64,000 nt of DNA from an uncultured Planctomycetaceae bacterium (GCA_963833985.1 CAWIAD010000002.1:352001-416000), one strand, 5' to 3'. Shown: positions 33,001-42,000, numbered from the stretch's first letter. Program-made: the numbers.

Positions 33001-36000
33001 GGCACGCTGGCCGTAGCCGAGCGGCCGGTGCGGCGATTTCGGAGTCGCGCGACGACGCCAGGGTCAACCCGCGCTCGCTCACAGAGAACCGAATTGGTCC
33101 TTGCCCGGGTTCGTCCAGGCGGTGAGCTTGCGCCCTTGCTCAGGCTCGTCAGCCAGGCCAGGGCCAATGAGGCCATTCCCAGCGCGATGTAGTCGAGCCC
33201 CGCCACGAGCACTCTCAGGTATCGATACGCCAGCCAGCCCGACCAGAGGGCCCAGCAAGTAAGAATGGCTCCGGCGGCCGCGAGCGATCCACGGTGCTTC
33301 AGCAGCCAGCCGTAGGCCGCCAGCACAAGGCACATGACAGGCGGGTAGATCCACCTTGCCAGCGGCGGGACCTGGTCTTCCATTCCGCCGTCGGGCCTGA
33401 CCAGCAAGGCGATGCATCCCAGCAGAGCCAGCAGCGCACCATAGTTCCGGCACCAGCGCCCGAGGGCATCTTCACAGACCGCGCCCAGCGCCAGGAGAGC
33501 AAACAAGGCCACGTGGTAGCCAAGCGGCAAACGATACGGCAACGGCGCTCCGCCGATACGCCCCGTCAAGGTGGCAGCGACCAGGCAGCCCACTGCAAGG
33601 AGACAGAACCAGCGGTCGCGCCGGATGACTGCGATCGCGAACAGCAGACCGGAAACCACGGCCATCGGTAGAAACCGCGGCGCTGCCAGCCGGCCGAGAT
33701 CCCGAGTACTCGGGTCGACGACCGCAAGGCCCAGCAGTGCAAGGGTCAGAGCGAAGGCGGCCAGCGAGGCGCGCCGCGTCCAGGCGTAGGCATAGTACCC
33801 GGCTGCGGCAACCAGTGTCAGGAAGAGCGGCGTGCCGCCCAGCCGTGCGCTGAACTCTGCCAGGAACGCCTGGTATGTGGGCTCGGGACGGTGACCGACG
33901 GCGGCCAGCACGACCAGAAGAGCCGGCAAAGCCAGCGCCAGACGCACGATGGTGGGCTGTCGCTCCACCAGGCCGATCTCGAGCAGGAGCACGGCCACGG
34001 CCAGCAAGAAGGGCACCAGGAAATAGGGCCCGAAGATGTAGGGCTCCGCCGCTTCAAGCTGGAGGTGGTGCATGGACCAGCACAGCAGCGCCGAGCGTGC
34101 CATGACGGCGAAGCCGAGCACGCCAAAGAGTGTCCAGGGGTACCAGGCCCAGGGCCAGGGACTGCCGTTGCCCTGGACGTGGTTCCGGCCCCGGCGAACG
34201 GCCGGCAGCAGCGACAGCGCGACCAGTCCGGCCACCGGTGAGAACCCGTAGAGCGCCCAGCTCGAGCCCGGCACTTCGCGGCTGGTCCAGCAGCGGAACC
34301 AGCGCCACCGGGTACAGGAAGAAATGTGCAAGTATCAGCAAATAAGGGATACGAAAGGCCAGCGGCAGCGCCAGGCGGCAGCCGCGGAGCATCCCCTCGC
34401 TGACCGCAACGGCAAACGCCAGACCGCCCACGAAACAGGCGCTGCCACGACTCGGGGCCACGGCCAGCACCTGGTCGAAGGTGACGGACGTCGCCAGGAA
34501 CATGAGCACCGAGAGCAGCAGCACGGTCCGCACGTCGTCCCAGACGCCGAGGAGCCGCACCAGCAGGCACGCTGTCACCGCCAGTAGCAGCGTGTAGCTG
34601 CTCAGGCCGGCCGCGAGCGCCCATGTCTGTGCGGGCTCGGCCTGGCCACCGAACGAGACCCAGAGCCCCAGACACACCAGCATGGCGCTGAGGACGTAGA
34701 ACGGGTTGTTGCACGTCAGCCAGCGGATCAGCCCACGTGAGCCGCCGAGCGCCGGTGAGGACGAAGAAATGCACGCGTCGGTAAGAACGGTCATGATGAT
34801 GGCCCCTTGATGTGATCGGGTCGGGACCGGGGCAAGACAGGAAATGACGGATGGGCTCCAGTCCCGTGCCTGCATCATAGCCAACCTGCGACAACTGTCG
34901 CAAGAGGCTCATGGATCAGCTTGCCGCAAGCAAGCGGTGGGGCCCCACGGCTGGCTCAGTCGTGCCGGGCCGGCAGCGGCGCGGACGCGTTCGCGGGATG
35001 GTAGCTGTTGCAGAAGTCGATCCGTTCACCAATGCTGGGGTGGGAACCACGGAAGACCTTGTAGATCAGCCCCGGGCGGGGGTTACTCAGGTTTTCGTGC
35101 TGGAGCTTGACGAAAGCCGTCGCGGCCGAGTGATTGGCGTGCGTCAGGTCGAGTGCGAAGCGGTCGGCCGCATGCTCCTGGAAGCGGCTGTAGGCCATGG
35201 CCACGGGGGACAGGAACAGGCTGGACACCTCGATCAAGAGCAGAATCAGCGGCACCGCCGCAATGTCCGACAGGCTCTGGAACCGCAGCCGGTGGGCGTA
35301 CCGGGCGATCAGCCAGCGGCCCAGGCGATCGACCACGAACAACCCGGTGAGCGTCAGGAGCGACGAGAGCAGGATCGACCACACCACGTGGCCCATCACG
35401 TAATGCCCCATCTCGTGGCCCATGACCGCGAGGACTTCTTTCTCGTCCAGCCGGTCCAGCAGCGTATCCCAGAGGACGATCCGCTTGGTCCCCAGCACAC
35501 CCGTCACGTAAGCGTTGACCATCCTGGTATCGGCGCTCTTGTCCACTTCGAAGACCCGGCTCCCTTCGATGCCGGCCCTCTGGGCCAGTTCCAGTATCGA
35601 CTGCTCGAGTGCCTGGTTCTTCATCGGCCCGAACTTGTTGAACAGCGGATCGATCCAGATCGGCATCACCAGCACGGTCGAGAACAGGAAGGGTACCGAC
35701 AAGAGCGCTGAGTACAGCCACCAACGCCGCGGCGATCGAGAGAGCAGCAGCAACGGGACCCAGGCGAAGGCGAAGCCCGCCAGCATCTCCACGCCCAGGT
35801 GGAGAACCGATTTCGTGAACCACCGGCCCGGGCTCTGGTTCGAGAGACCGTAAGCGTGCTGGCGCACGAACCCCGCGTAATAGTTCAGGGGCAGGTCAAT
35901 CAGGAAGACGAGCCCCAGGTAGAGCACGACGTACAACCCCACCGAGAGGAACCAGTAGCGGCCCAGCCTGTGCGCCAGGTCACGGAGAGTGGCGGAGAAG

Positions 36001-39000: not shown

Positions 39001-42000
39001 GGCTCCCGCGCATCGCCGGGTCCTGCCTGTGCCTGACCGCGAATCGATAGGGATGGTTGATCCATCGGACTTGGTTCCCGCCCTGACCCGCGGATCGCCA
39101 TTATTCCAGGAACATAATCTCGTCGTTGCTCTCGAGCGGCCGGGACGGGCGAGGCGGGATCTCATCATCCGTATCGAGGACGATCACATCGTCTGTGATC
39201 GTCTCGACGGGCCGGGCGTTGCGTGGACCCGCGCTGTCCGTGAGACATCGGCCTTCACCGTTCGGGGCGGGAATGGGCAAGCTCGCGGACGCGGTCTGGC
39301 ACGGCGACACGGACACCGCGCTGACGGTTGAGCCTGCCGGGTGGATCGCCGTGACAAGACCGGGGGGCCCGGGAGCCAGCACAGTCGTCGTCGTGACCAG
39401 TTCCGGCTGGCCGGTGATCCCGTCGCCGATCGCCCTGGCGTACCGCTCCATGAACTGGCGCACGCGTCCCACCGGAGAGAGGCTCTCCAGGCCTGAGCCG
39501 GAACCGTTTCGGGCGGCGTGGCCGGCACGCGAGGGCTGCCTTGTCGCGCCGGCCGAGGACCCCCTCGTGCTGCCGTTGACGTCGCTCTCCGCGGCTTCAA
39601 TCCGCCCCTGGGCCGCACGCAGGTCGCGCAATGGCCGGGCGTCGGTGGGGAAGAGGATTGCCGTCTGGTTGGCGACCCAGAGCGCGGCTTCCCGGTTGTA
39701 CGGGCTGCGGATGTCGTAGTTGAAATAGCGGGTCATGTCCCAGAGCATCACGCAGAGCTCGTCTAGCTGGACGCTGGGCACCCAGTGCGTGCCGTAACCG
39801 CCCAGACAGACCATGCCGATCTCCGAGATATTGGGATGGTACACCGGAGTCAGCCAGCGCAGCTCTGGAATGGTCCGGGGATAGGATGCACCAAGCTTGA
39901 TCTCCACGCGGTGGTAAAGGACGAGCTTGACCTTGCCGCGATCACGGCATAACCCCTTACCCTTGTAGGTGACAAGATAGTACGTGGGCGGATTGCCCGT
40001 AGCCTGAAAATCAAAGACCGAACTTTCCGACCGCAGCCTTTCAAGGGCCGTCAGGTCGTTTCTCAGGCGCCGCATGCGTGGGGAGTCGTGCATCGTCTCG
40101 CGGCCACCCGCGGCAAGCGCGGAGCCGACCTCTTGGAGGTACATCGTCTGGCGAAAAGGGAGCTCTGGGGAGGCTGCGGCCGAGGCAGTGAAAACTGTTC
40201 GGGCGAGGCCACAACACCGGGCACCGGGGAATGTCCCGTGCGCCGGTGAACCCCGCCCCGCTCAGCCCGCGACCACCTCGGGATAGACGATCAGGTGATC
40301 GCCATTCTGAATTCCAGCCTCAACGAGTGTCCAGTTTTCGAGCAGCCGCCGTCCCCCTTCTTTATGATCCAGCGCGTAGCTCATGGGCTGACCGTCCGGG
40401 CTGGTCGCCGGCAAGTTCATCTTGGTGATGATGTTGGGGATGATCCGGCTAACGGGAACGGTGAAGGCGATAACCGCCTTGACCGACTTGGACCCGGTCT
40501 GATCCAGAAAGGTGACCTGGATCCCGTTGGGATCGGCATTTCCGCCGTATGACATGATCAGGATACCTCCTCCACATCCCTATTCGGACGCTCCTCGCCG
40601 ATATTGGGTCGCACCCGACGGTTTCTTCCCGATCTTCCCCGCGGCCGGGCAGCCCGTCTTGGCATTGCCCTTCCACCAGGATAACCGCTGACGCGCGCGG
40701 CGAGAACAGCCCGCAGCGCAAATTCCAGGTGAAGTCCCGGTAATCGACTCTTGCGCGTCCCTCTCTCAGCTTATACGCGAGATGAGTTCCATCCTTTCAC
40801 GGGAATCTCATCGGGTCTCGCATTCTCAGCGGCCGGAGGCGTCCACTTCGATGCTGTTTCCTGCGACCCGGACGACCCTGGCCCAGGTGATCTGGTCCGC
40901 GAAGCGCTGCACATCGACCGAGCCCTCGAAGCCTATCCGATACATGGACAACGGACCGCCAGAGCCGGAGTTCGAGAGCTGATACCCGCTGGAAACGCGC
41001 CTGATCAGCTCCGTCAGCCTGTCCGCGAACTGCCTGGCGGCCTCCCGGTTGCTCAGACCGGAGACCATCACAACAATCGAGTACGCCATGACCGGCTGCT
41101 GGACGCCCGGCGGCGGTGCGGGCGATTGCGCCGGCGGGGGTTCGAAGCCCGAGGGCGGACCAGGGGCTGGTCGCAGAAAACCCGGCGGCACTTCGGCAGG
41201 ATCGCCGGCACCCGAGAACCCAGCCGGGAGGGCCCCGTCCTGCCGATCGATGTTGTGCCTCATCGCATTGAGTCCTGGCAGCGCGATGGCCATGACGATC
41301 ACCACACCGAAGGACGCGATGTAGCTCAGGAAGGGGCCCTTCATGGCATCCCATTCCCTGATCGTGTACCCAAGGATGTAGAAGGGGCAAAACCAGCAGA
41401 GCAGCCCGGTCAAGAGACCGTCGCTGAAGGGCACGATGATGACCCCGGCTGCCCCGTAGAGAAAGAGCACCAGGAACGACAGCACCCCACCGCCAAAGAA
41501 GAGGTACGCCCCGGCAGCCGGGCTGATGAGGGTGAGCAGAAAACCCAGGGCGAGCACGGCGAGTACACCGAAGTAGACAAACCCCGGCAGACCATCGAAT
41601 AAGGAGCCCCGGTCGCGACTTGCCCAGGAGCTTCCCTTGCTCTTTTGCCCCGGTGAGCTTGCCGGGGCCCGGCGGGGGAGCACCGGCGCATCGTATTCAT
41701 TGTCGACTGACGGAAGCGCGGGGGCGGCAACCGGGCCGACCGGCACGTCGTTCAGGCCGTACGGGTCGTCCACGGCTGAATCTGGGATGGATGGCGAGGG
41801 CAAGGAAGGACGCCGTTCCGCGGCCCCACGAGTCTTCCCCGACGAACTCGCTGAGGCGGCCACCGGCGCCGCCCCCCGCGGCGGACGGACGGTCGATGGC
41901 GTCGGGATGACGAAAACGTGACCGCACCCGCTGCACCGGGCCTTCTTGCCCGAAAGAATGCTGTCTTTCTGAAACTTCTTTCCGCAACTGGAGCACGAAA

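Follow-up and report, generated by a model that had tools for sequence, protein, structure and literature searches.

A predicted YukD-like Ubl conjugation operon and a membrane-anchored RING protein in the Isosphaeraceae

Gene organization of the locus

The DNA analyzed, called the window below, is a stretch of 64,000 nt from an uncultured Planctomycetaceae bacterium (GCA_963833985.1 CAWIAD010000002.1:352001-416000), and positions are counted along it. An earlier note had described at 34956..40555 an operon of host-like G+C content with genes for a ubiquitin-like protein (Ubl), an E2, an E1, a JAB peptidase with two transmembrane (TM) segments and an M48 peptidase. Both statements were confirmed: all five genes are located on the minus strand, they match Pfam YukD (E 3e-14), UQ_con (4e-11), ThiF (4e-57), JAB (2e-9) and Peptidase_M48 plus M48_N, and the G+C content of the single genes ranges from 0.58 to 0.68, that of the genome being 0.65.

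The Ubl gene (97 aa; 40262..40555) is followed by those for the E2 (330 aa; 39101..40093), the E1 (442 aa; 37773..39101), the JAB/JAMM peptidase (472 aa; 36358..37776) and a Ste24-like M48 membrane metallopeptidase, a linked neighbour (34956..36302). Two gene starts were corrected: the E1 begins with the ATG at 39101 and JAB with the GTG at 37776, each start overlapping the stop codon of the gene before it (E2 and E1, respectively). The same overlap of JAB with E1 occurs in 21/55 loci, JAB being translationally coupled to E1. The linkage of E1 and M48 to JAB was seen again in 70 and 58, respectively, of 76 related loci. An MMPL/RND transporter gene (29832..32691, minus strand; Pfam MMPL) is the usual next gene of the cluster. 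The RING E3 gene, which the note did not list, lies outside the window on another contig of the same genome (G000:C1:4881-5726, minus strand).

A candidate sigma-70-like promoter (TTCTCG, 17 nt, TATCCT) was found at 40678..40706 on the minus strand as a conserved upstream pattern. A TATCCT-like hexamer, picked by pattern, lies 94-138 nt 5' of the Ubl start in 56/61 loci, and a TT located 22-23 nt 5' of this hexamer is 88-93% conserved. The conserved leader (40565..40607, minus strand) contains a CAATA element, CGAA and a strong Shine-Dalgarno sequence, GGAGGAGGT. An Rfam search of the leader gave no match, and a search for a regulon sharing the leader element found none.

All seven genes of the cluster are intact in Singulisphaera acidiphila DSM 18658. 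The zinc-ribbon membrane gene located upstream (40826-42013) was rejected as part of the operon, which it adjoins in 2/76 loci only. A frameshifted locus (L135) in a record labelled Alphaproteobacteria, with pieces 60-90% identical to the proteins of the study genome, is probably mis-binned and was set aside.

Protein motifs and predicted folds

The Ubl matches PF08817 above the cut-off and has a conserved terminal Gly, with PEVVAG in 61/62 sequences. Its model (pLDDT 89.6) is a YukD-like beta-grasp which matches the EccD ubiquitin-like domain with a Z score of 11.2 and ubiquitin/SUMO folds with a Z score of about 10. In the study genome the protein is encoded in its mature form, ending at the Gly, while 53/61 orthologues carry an extension beyond it, 2 residues long in 38 of those; the extensions vary in sequence and do not resemble a CAAX box. 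Two lysines, Lys23 and Lys65, are invariant.

The E2 consists of a UBC core with HPN-x7-Cys96, a variable linker and an acidic-hydrophobic tail. The HPNx7C motif is present in 63/63 orthologues, and the nearest solved sequences are eukaryotic E2s, e.g. Ubc13/UBE2N. A 2013 paper by Arcas and colleagues reportedly deals with planctomycete E2s. The E1 has, beside a ThiF adenylation domain and a C-terminal domain with two CxxC, zinc sites and a candidate catalytic Cys239 (RYSC); GxGALG is found in 53/53 orthologues, RYSC in 48/53 and the CxxC pair in 52/53. Its nearest solved sequences are UBA7, UBA1 and SAE2.

JAB begins with a SIM-like DEMVFDE sequence, followed by the JAMM residues E64/H130/H132/D143, TM1, a helical loop of about 160 aa, TM2 and a short tail ending in HQIIE. 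The catalytic motif was said to be intact, and WYH[TS]HPx9D is indeed present in 73/75 orthologues. The two hydrophobic segments of the note also reappear: a helical stretch lies between segment 1 (36955..37038, minus strand; hydropathy 2.3) and segment 2 (36427..36489, minus strand; hydropathy 1.7), called in 60/61 and 51/61 orthologues, respectively, and both together in 50/61 full-length orthologues. Positive-inside counts favour no one topology of JAB. An atlas search with the membrane region gave no usable match.

The consensus of the SUMO-interacting motif (SIM) served as the yardstick for the E2 and JAB ends, which fit its form: a short hydrophobic core, acidic flanks and a disordered region. 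The E2 tail contains two SIM-like motifs, DDVIVLD and the C-terminal DEIMFLE (39104..39193, minus strand). The C-terminal one occurs in 54/63 orthologues, with core columns conserved at 80% and the linker at 1-13%. The charge of the E2 and JAB terminal motifs reverses between lineages together with that of the Ubl surface: in type-A loci a basic Ubl surface goes with an acidic E2 end (26/27), and in type-C loci an acidic Ubl surface with basic E2 and JAB ends (6/6). This charge flip represents only one or two evolutionary events. The predicted complex of the Ubl with the E2 tail scored 0.28, the mark being 0.32, which weighs on neither side. A genome-wide search of a crude gene set yielded no set of readers with the same motif (42 ORFs, against 23-39 in shuffles; 2 against 0-3 for the strict form).

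A membrane-anchored Prok-RING_1 protein is encoded within 2 kb upstream of the Ubl gene in 30/56 related loci, and it shares an operon with the Ubl in 9/12 loci of a second family, f3. It matched PF14446 with 28.7 bits in one search and with 25.2 bits, below the 29.1 cut-off, in another; the atlas clusters are 82-97% PF14446. An N-terminal TM helix is present in 36/36 of these proteins and the strict C4HC3 pattern in 33/36. The middle domain of its model matches TtfA (Z 15.1, rmsd 3.9, 161 residues aligned). The model also matches two chains of translocon structures, 7tut_4 (Z 12.4) and 9i78_4 (Z 10.6), the second assigned to CCDC47 by residue range; T3SS-chaperone-like folds come next (Z 6-8). 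The C-terminus of the model matches RING/U-box domains, and Foldseek concurs on the fold matches.

TtfA and CCDC47 share with this protein an N-terminal TM helix followed by the same globular fold, but they lack the RING and are only 6-16% identical to it; CCDC47 has ribosome-binding latch helices where the bacterial protein has its RING. No sequence-level match to TtfA or CCDC47 was found, and a literature search found no paper treating both. TtfA is TM-anchored and binds MmpL3 (PMC6593404). The fold likeness, which comes from a predicted model, by itself proves no function.

Distribution, inheritance and genomic context

The system was said to be nearly universal and single-copy in the Isosphaeraceae. 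The first part holds: JAB matches were found in 109/121 genomes (41/47 of high quality), the Ubl in 106/121, and Ubl, JAB and RING together in 100/121 (again 41/47). All three are missing in 9/121, and eight of these nine form one early-branching genus, g50 (0/8), whose lack of the system was re-tested with profiles and positive controls; the E2 family was not found in 4/4 g50 genomes either. In the tree g50 branches off first, though with weak support, so the system may never have been present there. A RING-like homologue occurs in one 99% complete genome (G293) in which no YukD was matched, and in another (G003, 92%, 600 contigs) the RING is present and Ubl, E2 and JAB gave no match. The orthologue is single-copy, as is the Ubl of the study genome, where this YukD is the sole one found, but the tag in general is not: 26/121 genomes hold a second Ubl, 37-46% identical to the first. 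It lies in a patchy, paralogous operon ordered Ubl-E1-JAB-FHA-Zn ribbon-RING-RING/trypsin-E2, about 43% identical in Ubl and E1.

The same type of system is patchy in family f3 (12/40), and related operons are patchy across the phylum (JAB match in 45/401). The JAB with two TM segments is a trait of the Isosphaeraceae but not a private one, as it was also seen in 8/12 f3 loci. Genes are retained where the operon is broken: the RING is unlinked in the study genome, the halves are inverted in G057 and G077, and the operon is split in G120.

Core status and vertical inheritance, proposed previously, now have stronger support. The tree of the concatenated operon genes follows the tree built from 19 ribosomal proteins (Mantel rho 0.82 over 19 genomes), with 9/17 splits common to both and four well-supported conflicts, all around G057/G052. 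In each of four gene trees the Isosphaeraceae sequences group as a single clade, at supports of 0.73-0.84, which are FastTree local supports and run high. The Ubl has a mean identity of 86.5%, fifth of 20 when set among 19 ribosomal proteins, and dN/dS is 0.006-0.06 in five pairs. The paralogous-operon Ubl is likewise the most conserved gene of its own operon (83-85% within the family), so that Ubl conservation alone is no mark of housekeeping. The Ubl of a class-distant family, f73, shows 77% identity, against 41-70% for nine ribosomal proteins, which suggests an ancient transfer.

M48 is the next gene after JAB in 53/65 loci with room for it. It has the features of a Ste24/CAAX protease (M48_N plus M48, HExxH and a distal Glu), with HExGH and ExxAD in 44/44. 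The note had included it in the operon; it is a linked neighbour but not a defining part, because it persists where the system is absent (4/4 tested genomes of g50) and is missing from all 12 f3 and 6 f73 loci. MMPL lies downstream of M48 in 33/49 loci and is present in 3/11 loci without M48; in this assembly the copy of the study genome is broken into four pieces in three frames. Since both MMPL and M48 are core genes that also exist without the system, and MMPL too is absent from the f3 and f73 loci, their linkage may be mere history. The recurrent neighbours, MMPL, EF-P, PPTase and RNase III, are housekeeping genes. Searches against plasmids and GenBank phages gave no match. Unlike type VII secretion loci (YukD/EsaB), no WXG100 or EssC genes were found among them.

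Relation to known systems and proposed function

Operons of YukD-like Ubl, E1, E2, RING and JAB with Prok-RING_1 (PF14446) were predicted in 2011 by Burroughs, Iyer and Aravind, as cited in PMC4197634, PMC3417536 and PMC7159879. The present system has a YukD Ubl, an E1, an HPN-Cys E2, a linked Prok-RING_1 with a TM helix and a JAB with intact JAMM; judged from its sequences, it is of that class, with which it shares the five components, the C4HC3 RING with a TM helix, JAB as sole de-tagging enzyme and planctomycete hosts. Operons of the class are described in PMC4197634 as sporadic and often missing in close relatives, and in PMC3417536 as highly mobile, whereas here the operon is near-universal and vertical within the Isosphaeraceae, and sporadic only at the class and phylum level. 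It also differs in having one RING with a DUF3137/TtfA-like domain and no FHA, trypsin or zinc-ribbon E2, as well as an E2 ending in SIM-like motifs and a JAB with two TM segments. Core status, E3 fold and motifs are new relative to the 2011 prediction, although that paper may already list these loci.

Other systems are more distant. Bil (BilABCD, types I and II) has separate Ubl, E2, JAB and E1 genes too, and a C-terminal extension as in most Ubl orthologues here, but it lacks an E3 and its E1 is of the IAD-AAD-CYS form (PMC11601596); here the E1 is shorter, a RING E3 and membrane anchors are present, and Bil profiles gave no BilA, BilB or BilC match and a partial BilD match (8e-11). Bub (6E/DUF6527) has the same Ubl, E1, E2 and JAB domains, but in fused genes with serine/tyrosine oxyesters and BubE, against separate genes and conserved cysteines here; no DUF6527 was found among recurrent neighbours. 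The Caldiarchaeum subterraneum operon shares the five-gene set (Ub, E1, E2, RING, JAMM) and an HPN-type E2, but its tag is a true ubiquitin, its RING-H2 is small and soluble, and there is a proteasome (PMC4197634, PMC11354881); here the YukD-like tag ends in AG, membrane anchors are present and no proteasome was found. CBASS type II (Cap2/Cap3) has an E2-E1 fusion beside a CD-NTase; here E2 and E1 are separate, E1-E2 profiles match the E1 domain alone and no CD-NTase was found among the neighbours.

The earlier note proposed a housekeeping role at the membrane. We favour, at a probability of about 0.55, the reading that a complete inherited E1-E2-RING cascade reversibly tags the cytoplasmic side of inner-membrane proteins and belongs to the ordinary machinery of the cell. 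Core and vertical status, housekeeping neighbours and the membrane-anchored RING argue for it; function is only inferred, M48 is not defining, one virus carries the tag, and the life of g50 without the system and the patchiness in f3 speak against housekeeping. By analogy with BilC and BubC, JAB would trim the short extension after the Ubl terminal Gly and later remove the tag. The E1 would adenylate the Gly, form a thioester at Cys239 and pass the Ubl to Cys96 of the E2, as the conserved residues suggest. The anchored E3 might pick a membrane client through its TtfA/CCDC47-like domain, while its RING, in line with gene linkage and fold, would activate the E2~Ubl. As in SUMO, and in line with their conservation and the charge covariation, the SIM-like E2 and JAB ends may dock on the strand-2/helix-1 groove of the Ubl, which would steer both enzymes toward already tagged proteins. 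Most likely the tag would work in the manner of SUMO, NEDD8 or UFM1 and govern how multipass proteins are assembled, kept active or turned over. A first candidate substrate class is suggested by the E3 fold and by the linked transporter, the MMPL transporter presumably being the first candidate client. A bolder version, which we hold only tentatively and think doubtful, sees in the system a bacterial equivalent of membrane quality control at the ER: an E3 fusing a CCDC47/TtfA fold to a RING, and a tag read through SIM-like motifs, would control the biogenesis or the quality of multipass proteins such as MMPL.

The operon could instead be a constitutive anti-phage system fixed in the lineage, tagging phage proteins at the membrane as Bil tags tail proteins, with viral Ubl copies as decoys. 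Defence is the role of those bacterial E1/E2/Ubl pathways that have been characterised (Bil, CBASS Cap2; PMC11601603), and the patchiness across the phylum and the f73 Ubl would fit. A lone Ubl with 71% identity and a capped C-terminus lies on a viral contig of 77.7 kb, but it is the single viral locus found in the whole collection and groups with f73, not with the Isosphaeraceae; no RING homologues were found in viral contigs. Viruses also copy housekeeping ubiquitin, as in baculovirus. PADLOC gave only partial matches for E1 and JAB and none for the Ubl, the E2 or M48, the locus has no defence-island context (at 1e-15, PADLOC matches 1/135 ORFs of the neighbourhood), inheritance is vertical and purifying selection strong; we consider this account unlikely. 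We give slightly less credence to an ERAD-like translocon quality control, in which the CCDC47-like E3 marks stalled or misfolded membrane proteins for destruction and M48 acts on clogs as Ste24 does. The fold match to a translocon component, the frequent place of M48 after JAB and the invariant lysines, which would allow chains, suit it, and Ste24 is known to free translocons that are clogged and to overlap with the ligase Hrd1 (PMC7820333). The RING, however, sits where CCDC47 has its latch helices, and M48 shows no covariation with the system. Links to a proteasome, Cdc48 or Pup were looked for in five genomes: the sole proteasome-family match in the study genome is a pair of ORFs which we take to be HslV-HslU, and CDC48_N was found in 1/4 and Pup ligase in 0/4 family genomes, so that no conserved extractor or proteasome was found.

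Two further accounts carry far less weight. A selfish addiction module later fixed, with the ligase as poison and JAB as antidote, has been proposed for mobile prokaryotic Ubl operons (PMC3417536) and would suit the coupling of JAB to E1; it is very improbable here, where the genes persist after the operon was split across the chromosome, the plasmid search gave no match, and the Ubl is as conserved as ribosomal proteins. That the E1 is of the ThiF family, with ThiF and MoeB as top NCBIfam entries, might point to a ThiS/ThiF- or MoaD/MoeB-like pathway for sulfur carriage or small molecules, but the scores are far under the curated cut-offs, an E2 with its active site co-occurs with the RING, no recurrent biosynthetic genes lie nearby and the nearest solved E1s are UBA7, UBA1 and SAE2; we regard this account as hardly credible.

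The bacterial Ubl conjugation pathways studied so far serve in defence and have no E3. If the housekeeping reading is true, ubiquitination can turn housekeeping outside eukaryotes and archaea, in bacteria that are cultured and harmless, and the operon would offer a small system for asking what the ancestral cascade did before its link to the proteasome. As Singulisphaera acidiphila DSM 18658 (L108), a cultured bacterium, has the cluster whole, the 2011 prediction is directly testable.

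Operon genes, active sites and membrane-anchored E3

The five genes that the earlier note had grouped into one operon are all present where it placed them, on the minus strand of the window: Ubl (40555-40262), E2 (40093-39101), E1 (39101-37773), JAB (37776-36358) and M48 (36302-34956). Start and stop codons are shared as an overlap at both the E2/E1 and the E1/JAB junctions, and a composition check bore out the host-like G+C content claimed for the operon.

After exclusion of frameshifted and truncated rows (length and single-match filters), the E2 motif HPNx7C was kept in 63/63 orthologues, the E1 motifs GxGALG and RYSC in 53/53 and 48/53, respectively, and the M48 motif HExGH in 44/44; the JAMM motif was kept in 73 of 75 JAB orthologues, in agreement with the intact catalytic motif noted earlier. 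The solved sequences nearest to E2 are eukaryotic Ubc13/UBE2N, and those nearest to E1 are eukaryotic UBA7, UBA1 and SAE2. The Ubl, with a predicted beta-grasp fold, has the C-terminus PEVVAG; since 53 of 61 orthologues carry residues beyond the terminal Gly, maturation of the tag must fall to the JAB in most species.

Conserved features upstream from Ubl are a sigma-70-like element and a strong ribosome-binding site. In the conserved leader (window 40565-40607, minus strand), CAATA and CGAA stand at constant spacing in some 95% of the 61 loci; the leader may serve as a regulatory site or an additional promoter. At the C-terminus of JAB (window 36358-36375, minus strand) a variable acidic tail is closed by a PxH[RQ]I[VTE]-like motif that is conserved.

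The source genome, G000, has one Prok-RING_1 gene (G000:C1:4881-5726), located on another contig than the operon. Its orthologues occur in 108 of the 121 Isosphaeraceae genomes. In 30/56 loci with enough sequence they are codirectional with Ubl and no more than 2 kb upstream of it; hence the ancestral cluster is RING-Ubl-E2-E1-JAB, with M48 and an MMPL transporter after it. MMPL follows M48 in 33/49 loci, and three of the 11 loci lacking M48 also have it. Upstream of the cluster, 11/56 loci share a phosphopantetheinyl transferase-like gene, and a similar gene precedes RING in G000 (G000:C1:5874-6926). In the window, MMPL (29832-32691, minus strand) and the membrane-protein gene preceding it (32871-34884, minus strand) are each split over several frames; assembly errors are likely, because relatives carry an intact MMPL. 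Further along, at 25572-29174, a Ser/Thr kinase-like gene with a TPR-like tail is divergent from an ECF-sigma-like gene, both named by ORF reading.

All 36 copies of the RING protein have an N-terminal transmembrane segment, and 33 of them fit the strict C4HC3 pattern. Its middle domain gave a weak DUF3137 match. In the predicted structure (pLDDT 85) the C-terminus resembles RING and U-box domains, and the middle domain matched mycobacterial TtfA (Z 15.1, rmsd 3.9, 161 residues) and two chains of eukaryotic multipass translocons, 7tut_4 (Z 12.4), which we take to be CCDC47, and 9i78_4 (Z 10.6); folds resembling T3SS chaperones ranked below (Z 6-8). The second chain is likewise CCDC47, judging from the residue range in PMC12572126, and TtfA is described as a membrane-anchored, MmpL3-binding protein in PMC6593404. 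A fold common to modelled E3, TtfA and CCDC47 proves no function by itself, but MMPL is, as given above, the usual gene after M48. Directly ahead of RING, residues 211-215 form a conserved GIxIV stretch, a possible third SIM-like motif.

Distribution and inheritance in Isosphaeraceae

JAB matches were found in 109/121 family genomes and Ubl matches in 106/121; for JAB, Ubl and RING alike, a paralogue was the sole match in one genome. Orthologues of all three occur together in 100/121 genomes (41/47 in the high-quality set), in agreement with the near-universal presence proposed earlier. None of the three was found in nine genomes, eight of genus g50 and one only 63% complete; g50 also accounts for five of the six high-quality misses. 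Profile searches with positive controls gave no RING or YukD match in 8/8 g50 genomes. The genus retains M48 (4/4 tested) and MMPL (8/8), adjoining each other; therefore neither defines the system, and M48, earlier grouped with the operon, is a linked neighbour. In the ribosomal-protein tree g50 is the earliest branch, and, as the order of the early branches is weakly supported, the tree does not discriminate between loss and late gain. G003 (92%, 600 contigs) has RING and MMPL and gave no Ubl, E2 or JAB match. In G293 an orphan TM-DUF3137-RING-like gene (L255:1480-2295) was found and YukD gave no match.

The operon tree of 19 family genomes correlated with a tree built from 19 ribosomal proteins at a Spearman coefficient of 0.82 (permutation p 0.0002, which reflects shared structure only, kin not being independent); G042, whose ribosomal locus is cut, was left out. 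The trees have 9/17 splits in common, and the four conflicts above 0.95 each involve G057 or G052.

Mean Ubl identity was 86.5%, fifth of 20 when ranked with the ribosomal proteins, and that of the E1, E2 and JAB cores was 69-70%; dN/dS of Ubl was 0.006-0.06 in five pairs (dS 0.6-1.1). Against four genomes of another family, f3, Ubl ranked second to fourth of 20, and against f73, a family of another class, it outranked each of the nine ribosomal proteins that could be compared, a hint of ancient transfer. The control, the Ubl of a second operon type (type B), is likewise the top-conserved gene of its own operon, so high Ubl conservation is a trait of the whole class. More telling of status are the persistence of the system genes after operon break-up and the identity of the recurrent neighbours: MMPL, EF-P, a PPTase and RNase III. 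In G057 and G077 (loci L189 and L191) the JAB-M48-MMPL block is inverted and convergent with RING-Ubl-E2-E1.

Operon types and terminal motifs

The window's operon is of type A, which also occurs in 12/40 f3 genomes (Ubl identity 48-73%), with the order Ubl-E2-short JAB-E1-two-TM JAB-second E2-RING in 7/12 loci. The second E2 lacks the catalytic Cys, and the pair resembles Ubc13 with its UEV partner. Loci L233 and L235-L241 of f3 have two JABs, one soluble and one with two transmembrane segments, and most have a second E2; the tail motifs are on both E2s. Type A is also present in f73, in the order E1-Ubl-E2-short JAB. Type B (Ubl-E1-JAB-FHA-zinc ribbon-RING-RING/trypsin-E2) is patchy, being found in 26/121 family genomes, 10/90 in f2 and 5/19 in f108. 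The single copy reported earlier thus holds for the orthologue only. Type C belongs to f24 (L222-L224, L290-L292), with an FHA-kinase following in the one locus scanned.

In E2 the core is followed by a nearly unconserved linker and two short motifs, the second at the extreme C-terminus (54/63; most misses look frameshifted). The same acidic-hydrophobic motif opens the JAB N-terminus, and we take these motifs to resemble SUMO-interacting motifs. In type A a basic Ubl strand 2/helix 1 goes with an acidic E2 end (26/27 loci); in type C an acidic strand 2/helix 1 goes with basic E2 and JAB ends (6/6). Two more loci with acidic Ubls have hydrophobic ends flanked by K/R. The charge flip, which amounts to one or two evolutionary events, is what the predicted docking on the Ubl strand 2/helix 1 groove would lead one to expect.

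Cellular role and relation to known systems

We propose that the Ubl would be reversibly attached to inner-membrane proteins as ordinary cell machinery, with a probability of roughly 0.55; the enzymology of the cascade, very probably correct, is more secure than this role. An ERAD-like role of the tag could draw on the eukaryotic precedent that Ste24 and Hrd1 both clear translocons (PMC7820333), but searches of a handful of genomes turned up neither a proteasome nor a conserved Cdc48 or a Pup ligase. The tag is therefore more likely to be regulatory, an ERAD-like one being quite improbable. A CDC48_N-domain gene, unusual for bacteria, is located at G000:C2:4437143-4437394 (L273) in the source genome and was not found in four others tested.

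A role in defence is unlikely. In its favour, one viral contig (IMGVR_UViG_3300033233_000027) carries a lone Ubl (L275:4965-5264), 71% identical, with three residues past the Gly and clustering with the f73 Ubls; none was found in the plasmids and GenBank phages searched. Among the 135 neighbour ORFs compared with PADLOC, taken from 167 candidates at 22 loci, a single one matched, a negative weakened in that planctomycete systems may be under-represented in PADLOC and no defence-island control was run alongside.

Burroughs, Iyer and Aravind reportedly predicted this class of operons in 2011, and the supplement of that prediction may list these loci. In papers that cite the prediction, such operons are called sporadic and often absent from close relatives (PMC4197634), or mobile and possibly selfish (PMC3417536); other tri-ligase systems (PMC7159879) and the C4HC3 RING (PMC11354881) are also described. 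Bil and Bub differ from the window's operon in architecture (PMC11601603, PMC11601596). The literature search, with few subscription papers within reach, returned no bench study of the class, and nothing it covered spoke of the core status, the E3 fold or the motifs. The system is real, complete once the E3 is counted, and core in Isosphaeraceae, a variant of a class known by prediction.
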